Source: Alphaproteobacteria bacterium
Lineage (GTDB): Bacteria > Pseudomonadota > Alphaproteobacteria > Bin95
Length of the DNA stretch: 64,000 nt
Direction: 5' to 3'
Assembly (NCBI GenBank): GCA_965261985.1
Contig: OZ253490.1
Location: 1,511,947-1,575,946 of the forward strand
Of the stretch, positions 20,061-47,902 are shown piece by piece. Made by a program: the position numbers and the translations under genes. The stretch's first letter is position 1. Each line of letters starts with the position of its first letter. Under the pieces are notes generated by a model, which was given only the letters and a program-made list of their open reading frames with translations, was not told the DNA's origin and searched no databases.

Positions 20061-20160
20061 GCGGTATTCGGGAAGGCAGCGGCATGTGGAAACCGGTGCT
20101 CATCCGGTCGATTGAACTGTTCCCCATTCGTGATACATTTGTCACCCAGGAGGACGCGCC

Positions 20161-20418
20161 ATGACCAAGACGGCCACGATCCGCGCCCGTGTCGAACCGG
20201 ACCTCAAGGAGGACGCCGAGATGGTGTTCTCGCAATTGGGGCTTTCGGCCACCCAGGCGATCAGGCTGTTCTACAAGCAGGTCACGCTGCAACGCGGCCT
20301 GCCATTCGCAGTCAAGGTTCCCAACGCGGAGACGCGCGAAGCGTTGCGACAAGCCTACGATCGCGACGAACTCACCGAGTACGAGACTCTGGACGCAATG
20401 AAGGCAGCCCATCGGTAA
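20161..20418 (+). CDS. dinJ: DinJ/RelB-family antitoxin
   Basis: 85 aa. IRARVEPDLKEDAEMVFSQLGLSATQAIRLFYKQV...GLPFAV matches DinJ. Strong AGGAGG ribosome-binding site. An imperfect palindrome GTGATACATTTGTCAC lies just upstream. Confidence 0.8.
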   Translation: MTKTATIRARVEPDLKEDAEMVFSQLGLSATQAIRLFYKQVTLQRGLPFAVKVPNAETREALRQAYDRDELTEYETLDAMKAAHR

Positions 20419-20567
20419 CCGTTCCAACAGGCCGTGGAACTAACCGGATCGGCGCTACATTCCGGCGGCCGGAGGGTGATTTTCTGCGCACCGCGGGCTA
20501 CGGAAGGCCGTCATGGGCCTTTCGCTCCCTTGCAGGTTTCTAGTGATTGTGGCGTGCACTCTACCGC

Positions 20568-22385
20568 TCAGCCGTCGTGTTTCCGGCGCCAGCCATAGCG
20601 CGCCAACAATTCGACATATACTTCAGGGCCCATTCGTCCCGCCCGCGAAGAACCTCCCGGAAAGACCTTCTCTTCCACCCTTCCGTCGTCGATGTTGAGC
20701 AGATAAGTCCCGGTGCCCGAGAGAATCACCCACGCCATGGCCTTGGTAAGCGGTGCCGGTTCCAATTGGACGACTGCCAAGCTGTCACGAATGATGCACA
20801 CGCTGCCCGCAATGGGCCCGAACTGGGTCACAAGATCGAGAATGAAGCGGTGGGCGTACCATGCTGACGCCGCCGCCGCCGCTCGTTTCTCTCCCTCCAG
20901 CAGGTCGACCGCCATTCGAAGCGACTGCCCACACTCCACGACATGCGTAAGCTCCGCCGGAGTGCACCGCGAGAGACCATCGTAGGGAATTGGCGGTTTG
21001 GGCTGACTCGGATTTAGGCAGAACTCCAACACAAGCCGCGGGTCAATTGGGTTTTCGTCCACAGTGTCGTACCGCAATGTGGGCGGAATAACCAGTCCGG
21101 TCGGCGGAGTCCCGATGGGCGGACCCTCTGCCAATGCCGGGTTCTGTCGAAGCGTCTCCACGCGCCAGTGTTCTGTTTCTTCATCGCGATACGCTTCGTG
21201 GACGAACCGAATCTGCGTCCCAATCTGGTGCAATATGATGACGTCCGGTCGCTGCTCTTCGTCCGAAGGGAATGGTTCCGGCACCTCCTCCGGCGACGTC
21301 ACAACTTCTTCGACAACTTCTTCTCTCGAATCTGCCGAATTCTGCTGTTCCTGATTCCAACTCGAACGTCGACCACGCGTAATTTGCCGCCTGTAGGTGT
21401 ATGTTCTGCCCGTCTCCCGCTCTTGATTTGCCGGTGACTCATCTTTGGAGACTTCCGCCACCGTCTTCTCCAGCTTGCCTTCCGGGTACTTCACTGGAAA
21501 CAGACAGTCCTTGAGCATGCCCGACATTGGAAGGTCGAACACCTCTCCGACCTCTGGGCCGATTGACAGCATCGCGAATCGGTATTCCATCTGTGCCGCG
21601 TAGTCACGCTCCCGCGACTTCAGAAAGATCATTGCAGAGAGTTTCTCCCAGCCCGGTTCGGCCTGCTCGATGCACTGATAGGGGCTGTCCACATAGAGCA
21701 TCGGCCCGTGCACCACGATCTGGGACCGCCGCTGCTCCTCCACGGTTCTGAATCCTCCAAAAGTCGCGCGCGCTGGCTCTGCCTTTCCACGTACGCCGAT
21801 ATGCTCGCACACACCGAGCCCCAAGCCTTGGGCGAATTGGGTCGGGCGATAGACCGACGTGAAACTCGTATAGCTGTCGGGAAACGACCTCCTCCAAGCG
21901 TTCTCCTTATCCTCGGAAGGGCGCATCGACATGCAGTAAATCAGCCAGTCGGCGCCGAACGTCGCCGCCTGCCTGCTGCTCTTCGACTCGGTATGCCGCT
22001 CGCTCCCACTCAACGACATCTTCGTGCGTGAGAGTTGGAGCCCAGCGTTCAAGGCTGAGACCCGTTCCGCTGACAGTTGCGGCTCCTCGCTCGGCACCTC
22101 GACCGTCTCGCTGGACGACATCCGCGCGCGGCCCTCTTGTTCGTCTTGGATCAGCACTTCACCCTTATCCCGGAAGGCTCCAGGGCGCGACAAGCGAATC
22201 GTGGATGCTGTCGCGAGGCCATATTGGGACTCCGTCGCCTTGACAAGACGCATACCGTCCTTCTCTATCTGTCCCGACAGATCCACGTACATCGTCTGAA
22301 CGTAGTTCCCTTGCGGCGTCAGGAACGCCCCCTCTGTGGCTATCCTCATCTTGGGGAACACGAATTCCCTTCGCTCATCTTCCAA
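20568..22385 (-). CDS. 605-aa hypothetical protein (ORFan) of lower GC, no recognisable domain
   Basis: Uninterrupted 1.8-kb ORF in a visibly lower-GC segment. The TTG start is preceded by AAGGAGA at 8-nt spacing. No Walker, HExxH or other motif identified. Confidence 0.55.
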   Translation of the reverse strand: MEDERREFVFPKMRIATEGAFLTPQGNYVQTMYVDLSGQIEKDGMRLVKATESQYGLATASTIRLSRPGAFRDKGEVLIQDEQEGRARMSSSETVEVPSEEPQLSAERVSALNAGLQLSRTKMSLSGSERHTESKSSRQAATFGADWLIYCMSMRPSEDKENAWRRSFPDSYTSFTSVYRPTQFAQGLGLGVCEHIGVRGKAEPARATFGGFRTVEEQRRSQIVVHGPMLYVDSPYQCIEQAEPGWEKLSAMIFLKSRERDYAAQMEYRFAMLSIGPEVGEVFDLPMSGMLKDCLFPVKYPEGKLEKTVAEVSKDESPANQERETGRTYTYRRQITRGRRSSWNQEQQNSADSREEVVEEVVTSPEEVPEPFPSDEEQRPDVIILHQIGTQIRFVHEAYRDEETEHWRVETLRQNPALAEGPPIGTPPTGLVIPPTLRYDTVDENPIDPRLVLEFCLNPSQPKPPIPYDGLSRCTPAELTHVVECGQSLRMAVDLLEGEKRAAAAASAWYAHRFILDLVTQFGPIAGSVCIIRDSLAVVQLEPAPLTKAMAWVILSGTGTYLLNIDDGRVEEKVFPGGSSRAGRMGPEVYVELLARYGWRRKHDG

Positions 22386-22667
22386 TCTCGTTGTCTCCTT
22401 GGCTTCAATAGCGCGTCACGGTGGGCGAGCCGGGCGTCCACACGCGGTGGGTCGCCTGCATGCAACGCTTGCGACGGTCCCGGCACGTTCGACTCGGGTG
22501 CAGCGCGCAGCTCGATATCGGTCCCTGCGACGATACCGGCTCATCCGCATATTGTCGCGCGAACCGAGAGTCAATCAGGCCCTCAGGGCGCTCTTGCCGG
22601 GCGTGTCTTGCCCGTAAGGGGTCAACGTGCCCCGGTCTGACGGAACGGATACGCCCATCGCTGAGGC

Positions 22668-22900
22668 ATGCGGCTGCTTGTAACCAGGTGGTTCGAGAGA
22701 GACCTCCGACGCTGCCGCCGGCGCAGCAAGGACCTCGACAGATTGTGGGCCGAAGTGGACCGGCTGTTGGCCGGCGAGCCGTTGGAGCCGCGCCATCGGG
22801 CGCACCGGCCCGGGAATACGCCCCCGAAACCCGATCCCCGAAATGCCGGCCGTGGATGGAAGTCGCGGGAAAGGCATTTTCCTTGTAGTCCTGCCGCCGT
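22668..22900 (+). pseudogene. decayed YafQ/RelE-family toxin gene remnant
   Basis: WFERDLRRCRRRSKDLDRLWAEVDRLLAGEPLEPRHRAH matches the YafQ consensus (F.RDLKR..KRGKDL.KL..VI..L..GEPLP...RDH). The downstream part is scrambled (GRGWKSRERHF versus GNWKGYRECHI) and runs in frame into the esterase gene. Confidence 0.55.
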
Positions 22901-22949
22901 TCACCATCGCTTCCCTCTCAGGCCGATTGCGCGTTCGGAAGGTCAGCCG

Positions 22950-23933
22950 ATGCCCAGGACACCGAAACGGCGTTCCCTGCAAGCCGTTGCCGCGATTCTT
23001 GCGGTGTTTGTTCTGCCGTCCTGCGCAGAGAGGTTCGATAACTCGCCTGTCGCTGCCGGGGAGGTGCGGACCCTGCTGCACCAGGGGGTCGAGCGGCGGT
23101 ACTACCTGCAGAACACCGAAGCGGGGGCGGCGGCTCCCGCGCCGCTGGTCGTGTCGCTGCACGGTTTCCGCAGCAGGGAGCCGGCCCTGGCGGAGCGCGA
23201 AGACCTGTCGGGGATTGCCTGGGAAGCACTCGACCGGGTAGCGGGCCGGGAGGGGTTCGTTACCGCCTATCCGCATGCCTGGCTCGGGCGATGGAACATG
23301 TTCGACGGATTGAAGGACACCCGGCTGGAGGACAGGCGGGAGGCGGACGATGCCGGGTTCGTCTTCGCCCTGGTCTCACATCTTGTCGCAGAGGGCCTGG
23401 CAGACCCGCACCGGGTCTATCTGACGGGGTTCTCCGATGGCGCCATCATGTCCTACAGGCTGCTCTGCACCGCCGGGATGCCGTTTGCGGCCGCCGCGCC
23501 CGGAGCCGGGTCGATGTTCGAGGGACACCGGGACACATGCGCCGCCGTGGCGCCGGTGCCGATCATGGTCATCGCGGGCACATTCGACGCGGTCCTGCCT
23601 TATGACGGGTGGATCTTCCCGACGGGACGCGAGCTGTCGATCCCGGAGACGATGGAGCATTTCCGCCTGCTCAACGGTTGGACCGGCCAGGAAGGCGCGC
23701 TTCGCGACTACCGGGACGGCCGGGACGACAGCCGCGTGCTCGAAATGCGCTGGACGGGCTGCACGGTCGAGGGTGCCGTCAAGCTCCTGAAGGTCAAGGG
23801 CGGCGGTCACAACTGGCCGAGCTACGAGCCTCTGCCCGACGAATGGCGCAAATGGGCCGGCGTGCAAAACCGCGACATCGAGAGCGCCGAGGAAATCTGG
23901 AATTTCCTGCGCCGGTTCCGCAAGACCGGGTAA
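22950..23933 (+). CDS. secreted/lipoprotein alpha/beta-hydrolase, PHB-depolymerase/LpqC-like esterase
   Basis: Signal peptide with lipobox-like LPSC. LVVSLHGF, GFSDGAIMSY (GxSxG) and a C-terminal GGGHNWP pattern typical of the PHB depolymerase esterase family. 327 aa. Confidence 0.65.
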   Translation: MPRTPKRRSLQAVAAILAVFVLPSCAERFDNSPVAAGEVRTLLHQGVERRYYLQNTEAGAAAPAPLVVSLHGFRSREPALAEREDLSGIAWEALDRVAGREGFVTAYPHAWLGRWNMFDGLKDTRLEDRREADDAGFVFALVSHLVAEGLADPHRVYLTGFSDGAIMSYRLLCTAGMPFAAAAPGAGSMFEGHRDTCAAVAPVPIMVIAGTFDAVLPYDGWIFPTGRELSIPETMEHFRLLNGWTGQEGALRDYRDGRDDSRVLEMRWTGCTVEGAVKLLKVKGGGHNWPSYEPLPDEWRKWAGVQNRDIESAEEIWNFLRRFRKTG

Positions 23934-41163: not shown

Positions 41164-41979
41164 TCAGCCGGGCAGGTCTCCGGGGCCGCGCGATCCGTAT
41201 GTCAAGATCCGGCCCCGCTGGCGGGTGCGCACAGTAAAGCCGGCGTCGCGGAGCAGCGTCTCGCAAGCATCGCTTGTCCGGCTGCCCTGGCGTTCGGGGC
41301 CGGTGTCGATGGCGATGCGCGCCGTCCGCCGGAGCAATTCCCGCCCGCCTTCGAGCACTTCCGGTTCCGCGCCTTCGGCATCGCATTTGAGGAACGCCAG
41401 CGCGTCTATCCCGTGGTCCTCGGCAATCCGGTCCAGCGTGGTGGCCCGGCGGCTGACCGTGCCTGTAGCGCTTTCAGCGTCGTCTGCGCCGAAAATCGAG
41501 CTGTCCGCCTGCGAAGCGGCAAGGCTGAATGTCAGCTCTTCCTCTGCGTTCCAGACCAGCGCGTCGATGACGGTCAGCGAGTCCCGGCCCGCCAGATTCC
41601 GTCGGAGGCAGGCCAGCGCGTCCGGGTCGGGTTCGACCGCATAGACGGTCCGCCCTTCGTTCAGGGCCAGTAGCGAGAACTCTCCGGCATATGCGCCAAT
41701 GTCGAGAACCGGGCCGGGCGGCGGGGCGAGGGCGCTGAAGAAATACTGTGCGTCGAGGCTGCTCAGGCGGGCGGCTAACCCCCTCCTGTAGCGCAGCCAG
41801 CTCGCCGGCGAAACGCCGAACACCGAGCCGTCCGGCGCCGCAATTTCGCAGTAGCCGTCCACTTCCCGCAATTGCAGCGGGACGCGTCGTTGATAGCCCA
41901 CCGCTGCGTAAAACCGGTGACGCGCGAATTTGAACCGCGCGGCCGGCGGCAGCCCTCTGGCGTCCTTGCGAACCGTCAT
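41164..41979 (-). CDS. FkbM-family methyltransferase
   Basis: DIGAYAGEF SAM-binding motif and FkbM domain layout. Start ATG at 41979. 271 aa. Confidence 0.7.
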   Translation of the reverse strand: MTVRKDARGLPPAARFKFARHRFYAAVGYQRRVPLQLREVDGYCEIAAPDGSVFGVSPASWLRYRRGLAARLSSLDAQYFFSALAPPPGPVLDIGAYAGEFSLLALNEGRTVYAVEPDPDALACLRRNLAGRDSLTVIDALVWNAEEELTFSLAASQADSSIFGADDAESATGTVSRRATTLDRIAEDHGIDALAFLKCDAEGAEPEVLEGGRELLRRTARIAIDTGPERQGSRTSDACETLLRDAGFTVRTRQRGRILTYGSRGPGDLPG

Positions 41980-42095
41980 GTCTTCCCGCTTGCCCTGCAC
42001 TCGCCCGCCGGGAGCAATGCCTTGGCTCTTATCATGACACCGGTCCCATGTCTTGCCGCCGGTAAACCGAAGCGGCGTTCGGGGTTGGAAGAGCG

Positions 42096-43001
42096 ATGAC
42101 ACCCCTCCGGCTGATCCCGAGGCGCATGCTGCCGCGCAATGCGTGGGGGGACAGGGAGTTCTGTCGGCGGCGGTTCGTGCGGAGGCAAGGGCGGCGACCG
42201 GGTCTGCGCGGTTCGGAGCGCCTCACCGACCTGCTCTACAGGATTAAAACAGATGGTTCGCTTCTCGACCCTCTGTGCCAGTTCGTGACCGACAAGGAGT
42301 TTGCGAAGCAATATATCGAGAACGCGGTCGGCCCGGGTTATGTGCCGGAGACCTATAAGGTCTTGAGAAACGCCGAGGACATAAGAGCTTTCGTCCCTGA
42401 TCGCGCCCCCTGCGTGTTGAAGCCAACGCATTTGAGCGGCCCGGTTCTCTTCCATACTGACCCGGACGAGGACATTGACCGCGACCTGCTTTTCGAATGG
42501 CTGAAGAAGGAGCGATATACCAGCACAAGGGAGGCCAATTACCGCTTCCTCCGGCCCAAGGTCATTGTCGAGGAATTCCTATCTGAGGACGGCGTGTCCG
42601 TGCCGAAGGATTACAAGCTGTTCTGCTTTCGCGGAGTCCCGAAGATGGTCCAGGTGGACTCGGACAGATTTGGCGAACACACGCAGAATTTCTACGATTT
42701 GGATTGGAATCGGTTGCCAGTCACCTATGGCGTGCCAACCGGGCAAGAGGACGACGACAAGCCACGGCTGTTGGACGAAATTCTAACCGTGTCGTCAAAA
42801 TTATGCTCGCCCTTCTCGTTCGTTCGAGTGGACTTGTATGTGAGCGAGACAGTCATCAAGGCCGGCGAACTGACATTCAGCCCGCGAGGTGTGAACGATT
42901 TGCTGCTTCCGCCCGCCGCCGACATCGAACTCGCAAAGCTCTTCGACCCGGATTACCGGCTGGATGCGAGGGCCTGCGCCGAGGCATGGGCGAACGGTTA
43001 A
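42096..43001 (+). CDS. ATP-grasp fold protein, TupA-like (teichuronopeptide-type amidoligase family)
   Basis: DYKLFCFRGVPKMVQVDSDRF..HTQNFYDLDWN and SPFSFVRVDLY match the TupA-like ATP-grasp family. The gene body is visibly lower in GC. Confidence 0.6.
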   Translation: MTPLRLIPRRMLPRNAWGDREFCRRRFVRRQGRRPGLRGSERLTDLLYRIKTDGSLLDPLCQFVTDKEFAKQYIENAVGPGYVPETYKVLRNAEDIRAFVPDRAPCVLKPTHLSGPVLFHTDPDEDIDRDLLFEWLKKERYTSTREANYRFLRPKVIVEEFLSEDGVSVPKDYKLFCFRGVPKMVQVDSDRFGEHTQNFYDLDWNRLPVTYGVPTGQEDDDKPRLLDEILTVSSKLCSPFSFVRVDLYVSETVIKAGELTFSPRGVNDLLLPPAADIELAKLFDPDYRLDARACAEAWANG

Positions 43002-43181
43002 TTGGCGGTCAGGCACTTGCCGCTGGAGACGATGACCATGCGCCTGACGGGCGGCGGCAGCGACCGCCGCCTGCGGGCGTTCTTTTCCCTTACCCTGCTG
43101 CCAATGACCGGAATCGTGGCCGGAAATTCATGGGCGATTCTGGCGGCCATGTAGCAGGGAAACTCGGTGCTCGGTAGTGTT

Positions 43182-43913
43182 TCACTTCGACTTTCGGGCT
43201 GCGTGCATGTGCAGCCGGTCGCCCCAGCGGTAGCAAGTCGCTGCCAGGTGTTCGAGCCGGGTTCGCTTGACCTTTGGCCTGGTCTCGATGGTGGGCGGAA
43301 CGCCCGCGTGGGTGACGATGGCCGGATCGACGGCGAGGAAGGTCAGCCCGTTCTGCCACCATTCCGCATAGAGCCAGTCTATCGGCGCGCGGATGCGCCA
43401 GCAGTAGTGAAGCAACGCCTCGGCCGCTTCCAGCCGGATGAGATAGCCGACGGCTCCGCCGAAGCGGCGGCGATACCGGACAAGCCAGCGGACACCGTCC
43501 AGCACGGCGAGCGCCCGGTCAATGCGGTATCGCCGTTTCGGCGCGAGGTTCACGATGTCCCATTCCGCATCGGTTTTCAGGATTTCCTCGACGATGACGG
43601 CAAACCCGTCCTCCAGCCGCGCGTCGTCTTGCAGGATGACGGCGTAGGGCGTCTTGGTCTCGACCATGCGTTGCCAGATAAGCCAGTTCGACAGCAGGCA
43701 GCCGATCTGACCCGGAGCCAGTTCGCGGCCCCGCATGATGCGCCACCACCCGGTCTGCATCCGGTGGCGGTATTCGCTCTCGTCCAGTGCGTTCCCGTCC
43801 ACGGCGTCGAAGAATTCGAAGTCGAACCCGGCAAGCTCCTGCTGCATGGCTGCACGGCGCTCGACGTCCCGTGCAAGGGAGATAACGAAGATCGGCGGAA
43901 TGGTGCTTGACAT
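43182..43913 (-). CDS. glycosyltransferase family 25 (LPS biosynthesis Lic2B/LpsA-like)
   Basis: IFVISLARDVERR N-terminus typical of GT25. Start ATG at 43913. Confidence 0.7.
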   Translation of the reverse strand: MSSTIPPIFVISLARDVERRAAMQQELAGFDFEFFDAVDGNALDESEYRHRMQTGWWRIMRGRELAPGQIGCLLSNWLIWQRMVETKTPYAVILQDDARLEDGFAVIVEEILKTDAEWDIVNLAPKRRYRIDRALAVLDGVRWLVRYRRRFGGAVGYLIRLEAAEALLHYCWRIRAPIDWLYAEWWQNGLTFLAVDPAIVTHAGVPPTIETRPKVKRTRLEHLAATCYRWGDRLHMHAARKSK

Positions 43914-44099
43914 GGGGAAAATATACGAAAGTGCCCACGGGCCGTCATTCTGACGGCTTTGGCTCCCGCTTGAGATAGTCCCATTCATCCACGCCGCGGG
44001 GCGGGGCGGTCATCAGCGCACGAAGCACATTCTCCGGGCTGTCGGGGATACGCTCCGGCATGGGCTTCTCGACCGGTCGGTCGCGCTTGTGGGAATGGA

Positions 44100-44912
44100 T
44101 CATGGGCGACCTCCCTCTTGCTGCGGTGTTTCACTGTAGGGGATTCGCGTCTTACGCACTACGCCGAGCGCGGACAGAGTCAACACGCGGGCCTTGTAGG
44201 GAATTACGCCGACATTCCGCCGTAAGCGGTGCCAGACACTGGTACGCCCGCGCATTCTAGCCCTTTCCCGCCACTGCTGTTGATCGGTTCCATACTCCGC
44301 TCTTTGCCTCGCCATATCTGGGACAATCTGCATCGGGCGCAGCCGCCGTGCCGTCTTTGAGTAGCGAAGATCGAACAGGGTATGGTCCACTGTATGGTCC
44401 GGGTTCGCAAACGCCGCCAGTGCGATCTGCGCGCCGCGCCGGTCGATGATGTAAGCGGCTGAGCCCCCACACCATCTCTCCAGCCGCTGTATCGCACGAC
44501 CGGTTGGGGTCCTGCCCGTCGGGCACCACAGCGGCCGAGAGTGGCTATAACCTTCTTCGAGCCTGATGATAAGTCCCTCGGACGGCCACCAATCCGTTTC
44601 AGTCAGCAGGAGCCGCGTGTCGGAAGCCAGTTCAGCATCGTCTTCAAGGATTAGCGCCGCCGGCGCATCCGAGTCGAGAAGCTCGATCATGGCCTTGCTG
44701 TGTCCGAGCATGTTCGCCGCCGATCCGAGGTTGATGCGCCAGAACGGCGGATTGCCGTTGGCGTCGCTCTGCCATTCCTCTTGAGCGGCGAGCGAGCGAG
44801 CATCGACAGCGGGGATGCGCGTTGCCCCGATGCCCAGGCGATCGAGCTGTTCCGACATCATCGCCCACCGATCCGGGCGGCGGTCGAGATTGATGACGAA
44901 GACAGGCAGCAT
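44100..44912 (-). CDS. glycosyltransferase family 25
   Basis: VFVINLDRRPDRW N-terminus, a paralog of the previous gene. Confidence 0.7.
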   Translation of the reverse strand: MLPVFVINLDRRPDRWAMMSEQLDRLGIGATRIPAVDARSLAAQEEWQSDANGNPPFWRINLGSAANMLGHSKAMIELLDSDAPAALILEDDAELASDTRLLLTETDWWPSEGLIIRLEEGYSHSRPLWCPTGRTPTGRAIQRLERWCGGSAAYIIDRRGAQIALAAFANPDHTVDHTLFDLRYSKTARRLRPMQIVPDMARQRAEYGTDQQQWRERARMRGRTSVWHRLRRNVGVIPYKARVLTLSALGVVRKTRIPYSETPQQEGGRP

Positions 44913-46276: not shown

Positions 46277-47902
46277 TCGTAACTGCCCAGGATGTTGGTC
46301 GTAGGGGCGTTGGCGCCTGGGGTAGTTTCAGGCGTATCGGATTTCGTCGATGAAGCTGCGAGGCGACCCCATCAGGGTGTTGAGGACGTCCCGGCCCTGC
46401 TTTTGAGCGGTGGCGATGATTGTGCGCAGTATGGCGAAGTCGTCTGCGCCGCTTCGGGAGCGGAAGCCTCCGGAGATTTTCTGGCGCAGTTTCATCATGC
46501 GCAGGTCGCGCTCGGCCTCATTATTGGTGAAGGGGACCTGTGGGTCGGTCAGGAAGCGCAGGGTCTCGTCCCGGCGCTCATGCAGGCGCAAAGCGAGGTT
46601 GTGACCCTTGCGCCGCCTCGGGGCCCCGCGCCGGCCGGGCGAGGAGAGCGGCGGCTGGTTCTCATGGAACGCCATCGCCTCGACAAGCAGCCGGTCGTAG
46701 CCGCGCACCAGACGCGCCAACAAACGCCCCGGAACGGCCATGTCCCGCTCCCGCGCCAGCCGCGCCACGCGCCGGGCCCGAAGCAGATGACGCTGCATGC
46801 GCCGGGCCCAGTCCTCCTTGTCGAACTCCACAAGCGCCTGCAACTCCCGAAGGTGATGCGCGTTGCAAAGCGCATGCTCCACACCCGCCATCGGCCAGTA
46901 GCATTGCCAGTGGTCGTGCACTGCGACCCCGGACACCCCCGCAGGCACGGCGCCGCGCCGCTCGCTCACCCGATACGCCGCCAGCAAGAGCCTGCCCCGG
47001 ACCCGATCCGGGGATGTGCAGATCACATGGAGCCACCGCGTGCGTGCGCCAATGCGAAGTCCGGTCTCGTCCAGATGCTTCACACGCGCCCCGACCGCCG
47101 CAAGCTCCTCTATATGCCCGCCCGCAGCCTGAAAACGCTCCGCCGCACGACGGCTCATCGACGCCAGCGTCGCAGGCGACACGCGCGCTCCGAACAAAAC
47201 CCCCAGAACCTCCGACAGCCGGCGCTCCGGAAGGAACTGCGCATGACGGAGCCATACCGCAACGCCCGAAAGACGAGGGCCATACTGAACCGGACCCGAT
47301 ACGCCATCGGGAAACGCCGCCCGCGTCACAGCCCCGCAACGCCCGCAGCGACACGCATGGCCGCGATGCTCCGTCACTTCCAAAGGACGCGGCTCAGGAA
47401 GGTCGAATACCTGACGCGCTACCGGCGCGCCCACAAAAGACGCTCCCAAAAGAGACGCCCCGCAGCCCCCGCACGCCGCTGGAACATGGTCCTTCACACG
47501 GTCCGGGCTCGCCGTCCGGCACAGCGTCCGGCCCTTGTGGCCCGGCTGACCGCCCGGCTTGCGATCCGTCTTGCCACGAAGGCTCTGTGTGCGGCGCTCA
47601 GACGACGGCTTCTTCAAACCGTCGCTCGAAGGAGGCTTGCCGCTATTGCCGCTGTTCAGACCGAGACGGCGCTCCAGCTCACCTATCCGCTCCCGAAACC
47701 GCGCGGTCTCCTCCCGAAGCGAGGCGTTCTCCTCCCGAAGCCAAGCGGTCTCCAACTCAAGACGCGCGATCTTCTGTCCGGAAGTCTCGGACCCGGCCAC
47801 CCTCAATGGGTCAAACGGCTCGGAACGACTCATCCAAAGGTTGACTCATTTTTCGTTCCCACCGTCAACCCCATAACCAAATCTGACATCCTGGGCAGTT
47901 AC
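46277..47902 (-). mobile_element. IS66-family insertion sequence, single-ORF (ISBst12-like) type
   Basis: Perfect 17-19-bp terminal inverted repeats GTAACTGCCCAGGATGT begin with the IS66-typical GTAA. The only internal ORF is a TnpC-like transposase. The element is flanked by an 18-bp direct repeat GACAAAACATGACATTTC. Confidence 0.8.
46328..47833 (-). CDS. IS66-family transposase (TnpC-like)
   Basis: 501 aa with an N-terminal leucine-zipper-like region, a CxxC...CxxC zinc-finger region and an IS66 transposase core. Confidence 0.85.
   Translation of the reverse strand: MSRSEPFDPLRVAGSETSGQKIARLELETAWLREENASLREETARFRERIGELERRLGLNSGNSGKPPSSDGLKKPSSERRTQSLRGKTDRKPGGQPGHKGRTLCRTASPDRVKDHVPAACGGCGASLLGASFVGAPVARQVFDLPEPRPLEVTEHRGHACRCGRCGAVTRAAFPDGVSGPVQYGPRLSGVAVWLRHAQFLPERRLSEVLGVLFGARVSPATLASMSRRAAERFQAAGGHIEELAAVGARVKHLDETGLRIGARTRWLHVICTSPDRVRGRLLLAAYRVSERRGAVPAGVSGVAVHDHWQCYWPMAGVEHALCNAHHLRELQALVEFDKEDWARRMQRHLLRARRVARLARERDMAVPGRLLARLVRGYDRLLVEAMAFHENQPPLSSPGRRGAPRRRKGHNLALRLHERRDETLRFLTDPQVPFTNNEAERDLRMMKLRQKISGGFRSRSGADDFAILRTIIATAQKQGRDVLNTLMGSPRSFIDEIRYA

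Follow-up and report, generated by a model that had tools for sequence, protein, structure and literature searches.

How did an uninterrupted gene for a 605-amino-acid (aa) protein come to lie between the antitoxin gene dinJ and the remnant of the toxin gene yafQ, and what may this gene do? The question arises in a 64,000-nucleotide stretch of an Alphaproteobacteria bacterium (lineage Bin95; contig OZ253490.1, positions 1,511,947 to 1,575,946), which is called the window below and whose numbering is used for all coordinates; L-numbers denote comparison contigs or loci and P-numbers related proteins. A first-pass annotation, made from the sequence alone, had proposed that a foreign single-gene unit of about 2.25 kb is inserted precisely at the dinJ|yafQ junction. 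The insertion is real, with its length corrected to 2,238 bp, and that it is a transposon-type insertion at this junction is virtually certain (Table 1). As a whole, we favour with moderate confidence an account in which the insert is an IS66-type non-autonomous cassette that most likely carries a single-gene defence passenger.

The limits of the cassette were revealed by blastn comparison of the window with L001, a metagenome contig of unrelated setting that carries a cassette copy among transposases, an integrase fragment and umuDC. The comparison gives a single block of 96.65% nucleotide identity that covers exactly 20415-22652, and similarity is lost abruptly at both ends. The cassette ends (GTAACCGTTCC and GTATCCGTTCC) are imperfect inverted repeats with matches at 10/11 and 20/26 positions, and the end motif GTAWCCGTTCC has just two matches within the window, both at the cassette ends. 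An identical 8-mer, GCCCATCG, abuts each end. A repeat search at default settings had missed both the 8-bp duplication and the ends, which emerged after the L001 comparison. Two relatives, L031 and L032, share the gene order of the window (CbiD, a DehI-like gene, cobA, dinJ ... DUF4149, SCO1, CbiA), with flanks 91–93% identical to it, and both read GCAGCCCATCGCTGAGGCATGCGG, in which the 8-mer is present once and the cassette is absent. This empty site with a single GCCCATCG therefore shows the insertion and the 8-bp target duplication directly, rather than merely implying them, and the empty junction that had been predicted for related genomes is found in L032. In-silico excision of the cassette together with one 8-mer restores ...AAG GCA GCC CAT CGC TGA ggc ATG CGG..., that is, the dinJ stop codon, a 3-nt spacer and the yafQ start codon. 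An integron cassette was considered and rejected, as the insert has inverted terminal repeats and a target duplication in place of an attC site.

The composition of the insert agrees with a foreign origin, and the lower GC content noted in the first reading is borne out by the computed profiles of GC and of GC at third codon positions (GC3). The cassette has a GC content of 0.600 and its passenger gene a GC3 of 0.695, compared with 0.723 for the 10 kb to the left and 0.760 for cobA (GC3 0.911); the left flank runs at 72–76% against 60% in the cassette. The dinJ gene is also low in GC (0.61), which implies that the toxin-antitoxin locus is itself an older foreign patch. L002, an 81%-identical relative, has in common with the cassette just the gene and the inner ~195 bp of its 267-bp leader, the outer ~72 bp being cassette-specific. 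Because the sharing stops there, the cassette's outermost segments of 72 bp and 141 bp are read as end modules around a captured gene. The cassette ends were also sought in L002, L003, L008, L009 and all other fetched loci, and none were found; this lack among relatives speaks for a passenger and not a transposase.

Profile matches and reading of the sequence confirm the DinJ-family gene, its strong ribosome-binding site and the GTGA-N8-TCAC palindrome that the first-pass annotation had described. The predicted protein exceeds the thresholds of both PF04221 (Pfam RelB; E=1.2e-11, 44.8 bits, cutoff 22.4) and TIGR02384 (66.1 bits, cutoff 45.65), and a search with it returns antitoxins of 94–95% identity in syntenic relatives. 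The stretch that holds the palindrome and the ribosome-binding site (20130-20154) is kept with one change in L031 and L032. At the other end of the gene, the last codon and the TAA stop come partly from the cassette end (CG|G TAA), and DinJ retains its ...AAHR terminus.

No toxin gene lies directly downstream of dinJ; the yafQ stub is now 2.25 kb off and was adjacent before the insertion. In L034, an 81%-identical dinJ is followed across the same TGA-ggc-ATG junction by an intact 88-aa YafQ with a Pfam YafQ_toxin match. When this protein was compared with the window by tblastn, 37/47 residues were identical (79%, aa 1–47; E=7e-25) and the match stopped at ...HRAHR, while nothing in any frame of the window corresponds to aa 48–88 (41 codons, the catalytic half). 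The N-terminal remnant that had been proposed from 22668 onward is thus present, but its supposed gradual decay is not, since the C-terminal 41 codons are simply absent. The stub scores below the cutoff of the Pfam YafQ_toxin profile (PF15738; 20.4 bits, E=6.6e-4, cutoff 30; profile positions 5–47 of 88). More distant YafQ queries (from P. syringae and E. coli) were uninformative on the stub by tblastn, and the closer L034 protein decided the matter. On this sequence evidence the stub is a pseudogene remnant of the YafQ family.

The order of events differs from the one first supposed, in which insertion was followed by toxin decay. L032, which has no insert, carries the identical 47-codon yafQ truncation, and the truncation therefore preceded the arrival of the cassette. 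Shorter remnants occur elsewhere: 20 codons followed by an insertion sequence (IS) in L033, and 15 codons followed by a reverse-transcriptase gene in L031. Since the inserts past the orphan dinJ differ among relatives, the DNA just downstream is a recurrent landing site, and the site beside the orphan dinJ and the cobalamin genes is an insertion hot spot. The locus thus resembles a dinJ-yafQ type II operon in its intact antitoxin, which lies above the family thresholds, and in its ancestral TGA-ggc-ATG junction, which equals that of the intact L034 pair. It differs in having just 47 codons of the toxin gene, an orphan antitoxin that is kept across relatives, and a hot spot downstream.

Among the closest known systems are "mobile insertion cassettes" that lack a transposase, for example MIC231 of Bacillus cereus. 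The cassette is of this general kind, with transposon ends and a target duplication enclosing a passenger gene that is not a transposase. Published IS66-family ends include GTAAGCGTCCGG..., GTAAGCGTCCGGCGAACTCACCTT and GTAACCGTCCGGGCA (PMC12888890), and the IS66-family element ISDge4 makes an 8-bp direct repeat (PMC12898284). The first 8 nt of the left cassette end (GTAACCGTTCCAACAGGCCGTGGAAC) equal the published repeat GTAACCGTCCGGGCA (PMC12888890), and GTAAGCGTGCGG and GTATGCGTGCGG are the ends of an IS66 element in L003. The IS66-type reading also draws on the presence of an IS66-family element 24 kb away in the window. The cassette shows the two family traits of inverted repeats starting with GTAA and an 8-bp target duplication, and it contains no DDE_Tnp_IS66, TnpA or TnpB. 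Its sole long open reading frame (ORF) has no Pfam match, which means that the element is not an autonomous IS66. With these ends and this duplication in the absence of a transposase, the insert is probably an IS66-type non-autonomous cassette. IS66 elements that bear passengers are known as "tIS66" (PMC12888890). The cassette resembles these elements (e.g. ISPa75-fosZ) in having ends that start with GTAACCGT, an 8-bp duplication and a passenger unrelated to transposition; it differs from them in lacking tnpA, tnpB and a DDE transposase, in having no cognate full-length element among those found, and in that only about 8 nt of the ends match.

The passenger gene is the uninterrupted opposite-strand ORF that had been noted before, with its TTG start preceded at 8 nt by the Shine-Dalgarno sequence AAGGAGA (22394-22400). 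The 267-bp leader contains no sigma-70 consensus and no Rfam match, and its folding equals that of shuffled sequences (z=0). The ratio of nonsynonymous to synonymous substitution rates (dN/dS) is 0.30 against L001 and 0.19 against L002, and the gene is therefore under purifying selection. The full-length AlphaFold model is mediocre (predicted local distance difference test score (pLDDT) 68) and has two ordered parts. The N-terminal 305 residues, modelled with 74 diverse sequences, reach a pLDDT of 89.8 and a predicted template modelling score (pTM) of 0.83. A search of viral structures in BFVD with this domain returned nothing, and the family profile has no match among PDB sequences. Across the 74 sequences, D81, E84, Y172, H226-G227-P228, Y231, F254, E267 and R269 are invariant, and K256, Y268, F270, D35 and Q222 are nearly so. 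All of these residues are present in the window protein, and the set looks like an enzyme active site.

Contrary to its initial description as an ORFan, the protein belongs to a large family. One search returned 140 relatives of 43–96% identity, nearly all of ~600 aa, of which the closest (P0002, 96%) is encoded on L001. An exhaustive profile search gave at least 522 clusters at 50% identity, 160 of them with E<1e-30. Source records of the members that were looked up carry no meaningful family name. In one-genome-per-species data the family occupies 26 loci, all in metagenome-assembled genomes, from Acidobacteriota, Latescibacterota, Spirochaetia, Rhodothermales, Paracoccaceae, Pseudomonadales, Gemmatimonadota and Chloroflexota. 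Homologues from different phyla (around 9950-11800 in L008, L010, L012, L016 and L018; also L013, L014 and L017) show 77–95% DNA identity, for example 87% for an acidobacterial–spirochaete pair of genomes and 94.5% for a Paracoccaceae–Pseudomonadales pair. The identity ends within ~20–45 bp before the ORF and a few bp past it, and these borders show neither repeats nor conserved flanks, that is, no visible transfer vehicle. Such identities indicate recent horizontal transfer of a gene-sized unit.

The architecture of the family varies around the conserved N-terminal domain, which also occurs as a stand-alone protein (~290 aa) or with other C-termini (~500 and ~700 aa). Variants of ~960 aa (L013 10001-12898; P0090 and P0097) carry, after the 600-aa core, a C-terminal extension that consists of an XRE-type helix-turn-helix (residues ~660–705) and ~260 unannotated residues; one of them is labelled "helix-turn-helix transcriptional regulator" by NCBI. 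The extension of the 965-aa variants was compared with the neighbouring helix-turn-helix plus M78 gene of L001 and with a 439-aa gene of L002, and is unrelated to either. Split, shortened or mobile-DNA-interrupted copies are found in L006, L015, L017, L019, L020-L022 and L027-L029, and could reflect real pseudogenisation or frameshifts of long-read assembly. No partner gene is conserved among 29 loci, in which the only clusters are shadow ORFs inside the gene.

The initial proposal of a defence or addiction function is plausible in its first part, with weak support from gene context and from a distant link to PDC-S31, but its link to DinJ does not hold, as no other family member lies beside a DinJ gene. 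PDC candidates were nominated for lying within BREX, DISARM or type I restriction systems (bioRxiv 10.1101/2024.01.29.577857). In a PADLOC scan of the 74 diverse members, 12/74 match PDC-S31, a single-gene candidate nominated by "guilt by embedding" (E 3.4e-4 to ~0.05), and no other model is matched by more than one member. The match is collinear, with profile positions 162–219 of 273 covering the invariant HGP...K...EYRF core. The cargo family differs from PDC-S31 in being about twice as long, with an extra C-terminal domain, and the window protein itself is unmatched. Among the 149 nearest neighbours in 26 loci, transposases and recombinases are commonest, with DDE_Tnp_1 (five), Resolvase (four) and rve_3 (four) at the top, together with IS110, IS240 and integrases; the raw counts further contain restriction-modification genes of types I, IIG and III, MADS mad2 and mad3, DrmMI, RmrA/T and a reverse transcriptase. 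In L002 the gene is flanked on one side by an AAA_13 ATPase with a GmrSD-like gene and on the other by a 1,457-aa helicase with a methyltransferase. This neighbourhood fits a gene of mobile and defence islands. The lack of a conserved partner gene, the occurrence of the N-terminal domain alone or with different C-termini, and the split or interrupted copies are counted on the side of a defence role as well. We put forward a defence function for the passenger tentatively, at somewhat less than an even chance.

A more specific enzymatic reading is weaker. The motif pattern of the N-terminal domain is one that we take to be reminiscent of DUF2971, with no profile support. Recent work describes DUF2971 as ADP-ribosyltransferase-like and as the domain of Aristaios, an abortive-infection system made of a single gene (PMC12522546, PMC11381338). 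Membership in DUF2971 (PF11185), DarT or AbiGi is not supported, as 0/74 members match at E up to 10. H226, Y231, Y172 and E267 are invariant with a spacing atypical for an H-Y-E triad, and the positions of an R-S-E triad are not conserved (R64 in 52/74, S153 in 57/74). ADP-ribosyltransferase chemistry is thus a doubtful lead only.

Several observations weigh against the account of an IS66-type cassette with a defence passenger. No target duplication is present around the cassette copy of L001. Neither a cognate transposase nor an autonomous element with matching ends was found in the window or in the Joint Genome Institute (JGI) metagenomes, where a scan for the end motif gave 50 matches, none with the cargo gene. 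Nearly all of these fall into two recurring groups that read as conserved coding motifs and the rest are isolated; the sole apparent end pair (L046) falls inside a GGDEF/EAL gene. The complete IS66-family element of the window, 24 kb from the cassette, has perfect 17-bp ends, GTAACTGCCCAGGATGT (GTAACTGCCCAGG...), which have just GTAAC.G in common with the cassette. On the functional side, the 605-aa protein is unmatched by Pfam, NCBIfam, PADLOC and PHROG models, and no catalytic motif or known family was found for it, in keeping with the earlier statement on motifs; homologues are absent from 72,556 plasmids and 50,697 phages. The link to PDC-S31 is weak (E ~1e-3 to 1e-2 over some 55 residues) and leads to an entry that is itself only a candidate, and the defence genes among the neighbours are raw counts.

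Three other explanations were weighed. The passenger could be a non-defence accessory gene, for example for host interaction or symbiont metabolism, that spreads because it is useful in the habitat; its position beside defence and mobile genes would then mean only that such genomic islands are permissive landing grounds. The family occurs only in assemblies of uncultured bacteria from many phyla, among which Palauibacter, an "APA" Chloroflexota bin and Marinacidobacterales look, by their names only, marine and host-associated; the lack of the family in sequenced plasmids and phages and of any direct match to defence models points the same way. The translation, however, shows neither a signal peptide nor a eukaryote-like repeat, distant members match PDC-S31, some variants are fused to an XRE-type DNA-binding domain, and the combination of frequent pseudogenisation with an island location is typical of costly defence or toxin genes. 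We consider an accessory role unlikely, though it is the strongest of the three. Less probable still is that the 605-aa protein is the element's own transposase, of an undescribed family, which would make the cassette an autonomous insertion sequence. A single ORF does fill the space between inverted ends with a target duplication, inter-phylum DNA identity of 80–95% stops 20–45 bp from the ORF ends as if the gene were the mobile unit, the neighbours are often other transposases, and the invariant acidic residues together with the histidine could make a metal site. Against these points, 0/74 members match any transposase family, and the other family loci lack inverted ends at the borders of homology. 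The gene is present in a single copy per genome, the two in one Dehalococcoidia contig being diverged paralogues; the domain is also found alone (290 aa) or joined to differing C-termini; and the ends are of the type of IS66, a family with its own DDE enzyme.

The adjacency to an intact, conserved orphan dinJ could also suggest that the insert rewired the toxin-antitoxin module, with the 605-aa protein as a new toxin under DinJ control. This is disfavoured, and we regard it as very improbable: the passenger lies on the opposite strand with its own upstream region, a RelB/DinJ neighbour is present in 0/28 other family loci, relatives retain the orphan dinJ without the passenger, and the L001 cassette copy has no dinJ.

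For the favoured reading of an IS66-type cassette with a defence passenger, the following course of events may be envisaged. An IS66-family transposase from elsewhere, acting in trans, would have cut and joined the cassette into ...GCAGCCCATCG|CTGAGGCATG... and duplicated the 8 bp GCCCATCG. The join falls where dinJ ends, 7 nt before the yafQ start codon, and the new TAA stop supplied by the cassette leaves DinJ unchanged. No live toxin was disarmed, as yafQ had been cut down to 47 codons before the event. The passenger encodes a predicted two-domain cytoplasmic protein whose large, unannotated family passes from phylum to phylum in gene-sized units, and its most likely role would be that of a single-gene defence (abortive-infection-type) protein. 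Its conserved N-terminal 300-aa domain may be an enzyme that uses D81, E84, Y172, H226-G-P, Y231, K256 and E267-Y-R, and the variable C-terminal domain may act as a sensor or regulator.

Table 1. Features of the dinJ-yafQ locus, the inserted cassette and the neighbouring elements (window numbering).
Feature	Position	Strand	Details and basis
Operator-like palindrome	20130-20145	+	GTGATACATTTGTCAC (GTGA-N8-TCAC); read from sequence; putative operator
dinJ ribosome-binding site	20148-20154	+	AGGAGGA; read from sequence
dinJ/relB antitoxin gene	20161-20418	+	85 aa, intact; Pfam RelB, TIGR02384
Target-site duplication, left copy	20407-20414		GCCCATCG; abuts cassette end
Transposable cassette	20415-22652	-	2,238 bp; single passenger gene between two inverted ends; transposase absent
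Left terminal inverted repeat (dinJ side)	20415-20440	+	GTAACCGTTCCAACAGGCCGTGGAAC
Terminator-like hairpin and T-run	20460-20484	+	Inside cassette end, 40 nt past dinJ stop; consensus scan
Passenger gene	20568-22385	-	605 aa, TTG start, uninterrupted; ORF list, homologues
C-terminal alpha/beta domain	20571-20978	-	~aa 470-605; AlphaFold
Acidic, proline-rich linker, low confidence			Between N- and C-terminal domains of the 605-aa protein; AlphaFold
N-terminal conserved domain	21471-22385	-	aa 1-305; AlphaFold, homologues
Passenger upstream region	22386-22652	-	267 bp; alignments
Right terminal inverted repeat (yafQ side)	22627-22652	-	GTATCCGTTCCGTCAGACCGGGGCAC, read inward on minus strand
Target-site duplication, right copy	22653-22660		GCCCATCG; abuts cassette end
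yafQ toxin stub	22668-22808	+	Codons 1-47; catalytic C-terminal half missing; tblastn with L034 YafQ
PHB-depolymerase-like esterase lipoprotein gene	22950-23933	+	327 aa, own start ATG 22950; host flank; NCBIfam NF050058 E=5e-31
Complete IS66-family insertion sequence (single-ORF, ISBst12-like)	46279-47902	ORF 46328-47833 (-)	501 aa

Some further features of the locus and its surroundings are recorded here. The hairpin inside the left cassette end could end the dinJ transcript; it is the sole match of the scan, no more than shuffled sequence gives, and is a weak feature. Downstream of the stub, the host flank resumes with the esterase lipoprotein, which has the lipobox VLPSC in its translation and is likewise annotated with 327 aa in L032. 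Because this gene and the yafQ stub share a reading frame, a naive ORF call yields a 421-aa chimera (22668-23933). The DNA downstream of the orphan dinJ holds a reverse-transcriptase (RVT_1) gene in L031 (5260-7900), a DDE_Tnp_1 insertion sequence with phytochelatin-synthase-like and PIN genes in L033 (3260-5600), and only the esterase in L032 (5260-5544). The IS66-family protein of the window contains the domains DUF6444, zf-IS66 and DDE_Tnp_IS66, and its element is flanked by an 18-bp direct repeat, GACAAAACATGACATTTC, far longer than the 8 bp usual in the family. Next to this element lies a second low-GC block (41164-44912; 0.59–0.65) with genes for an FkbM-type methyltransferase, a TupA-like ATP-grasp protein and two family-25 glycosyltransferases, which looks like a surface-polysaccharide island.

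The locus provides a clean, base-resolved case of a probable IS66-type cassette that moves a single passenger gene without a transposase, together with a donor-like copy and an empty site. It also corrects the intuitive story of a toxin-antitoxin pair disarmed by incoming cargo: the toxin was already dead, and insertions are tolerated at this hot spot next to an orphan antitoxin. The passenger belongs to a large family (at least 522 clusters) that is wholly unannotated, present only in uncultured bacteria, under purifying selection and exchanged between phyla. Its N-terminal domain is predicted with confidence, yet matches no solved structure. If the defence reading is true, these proteins would represent a new enzyme family in the bacterial immune repertoire, and the PDC-S31 candidate would gain a wider family.

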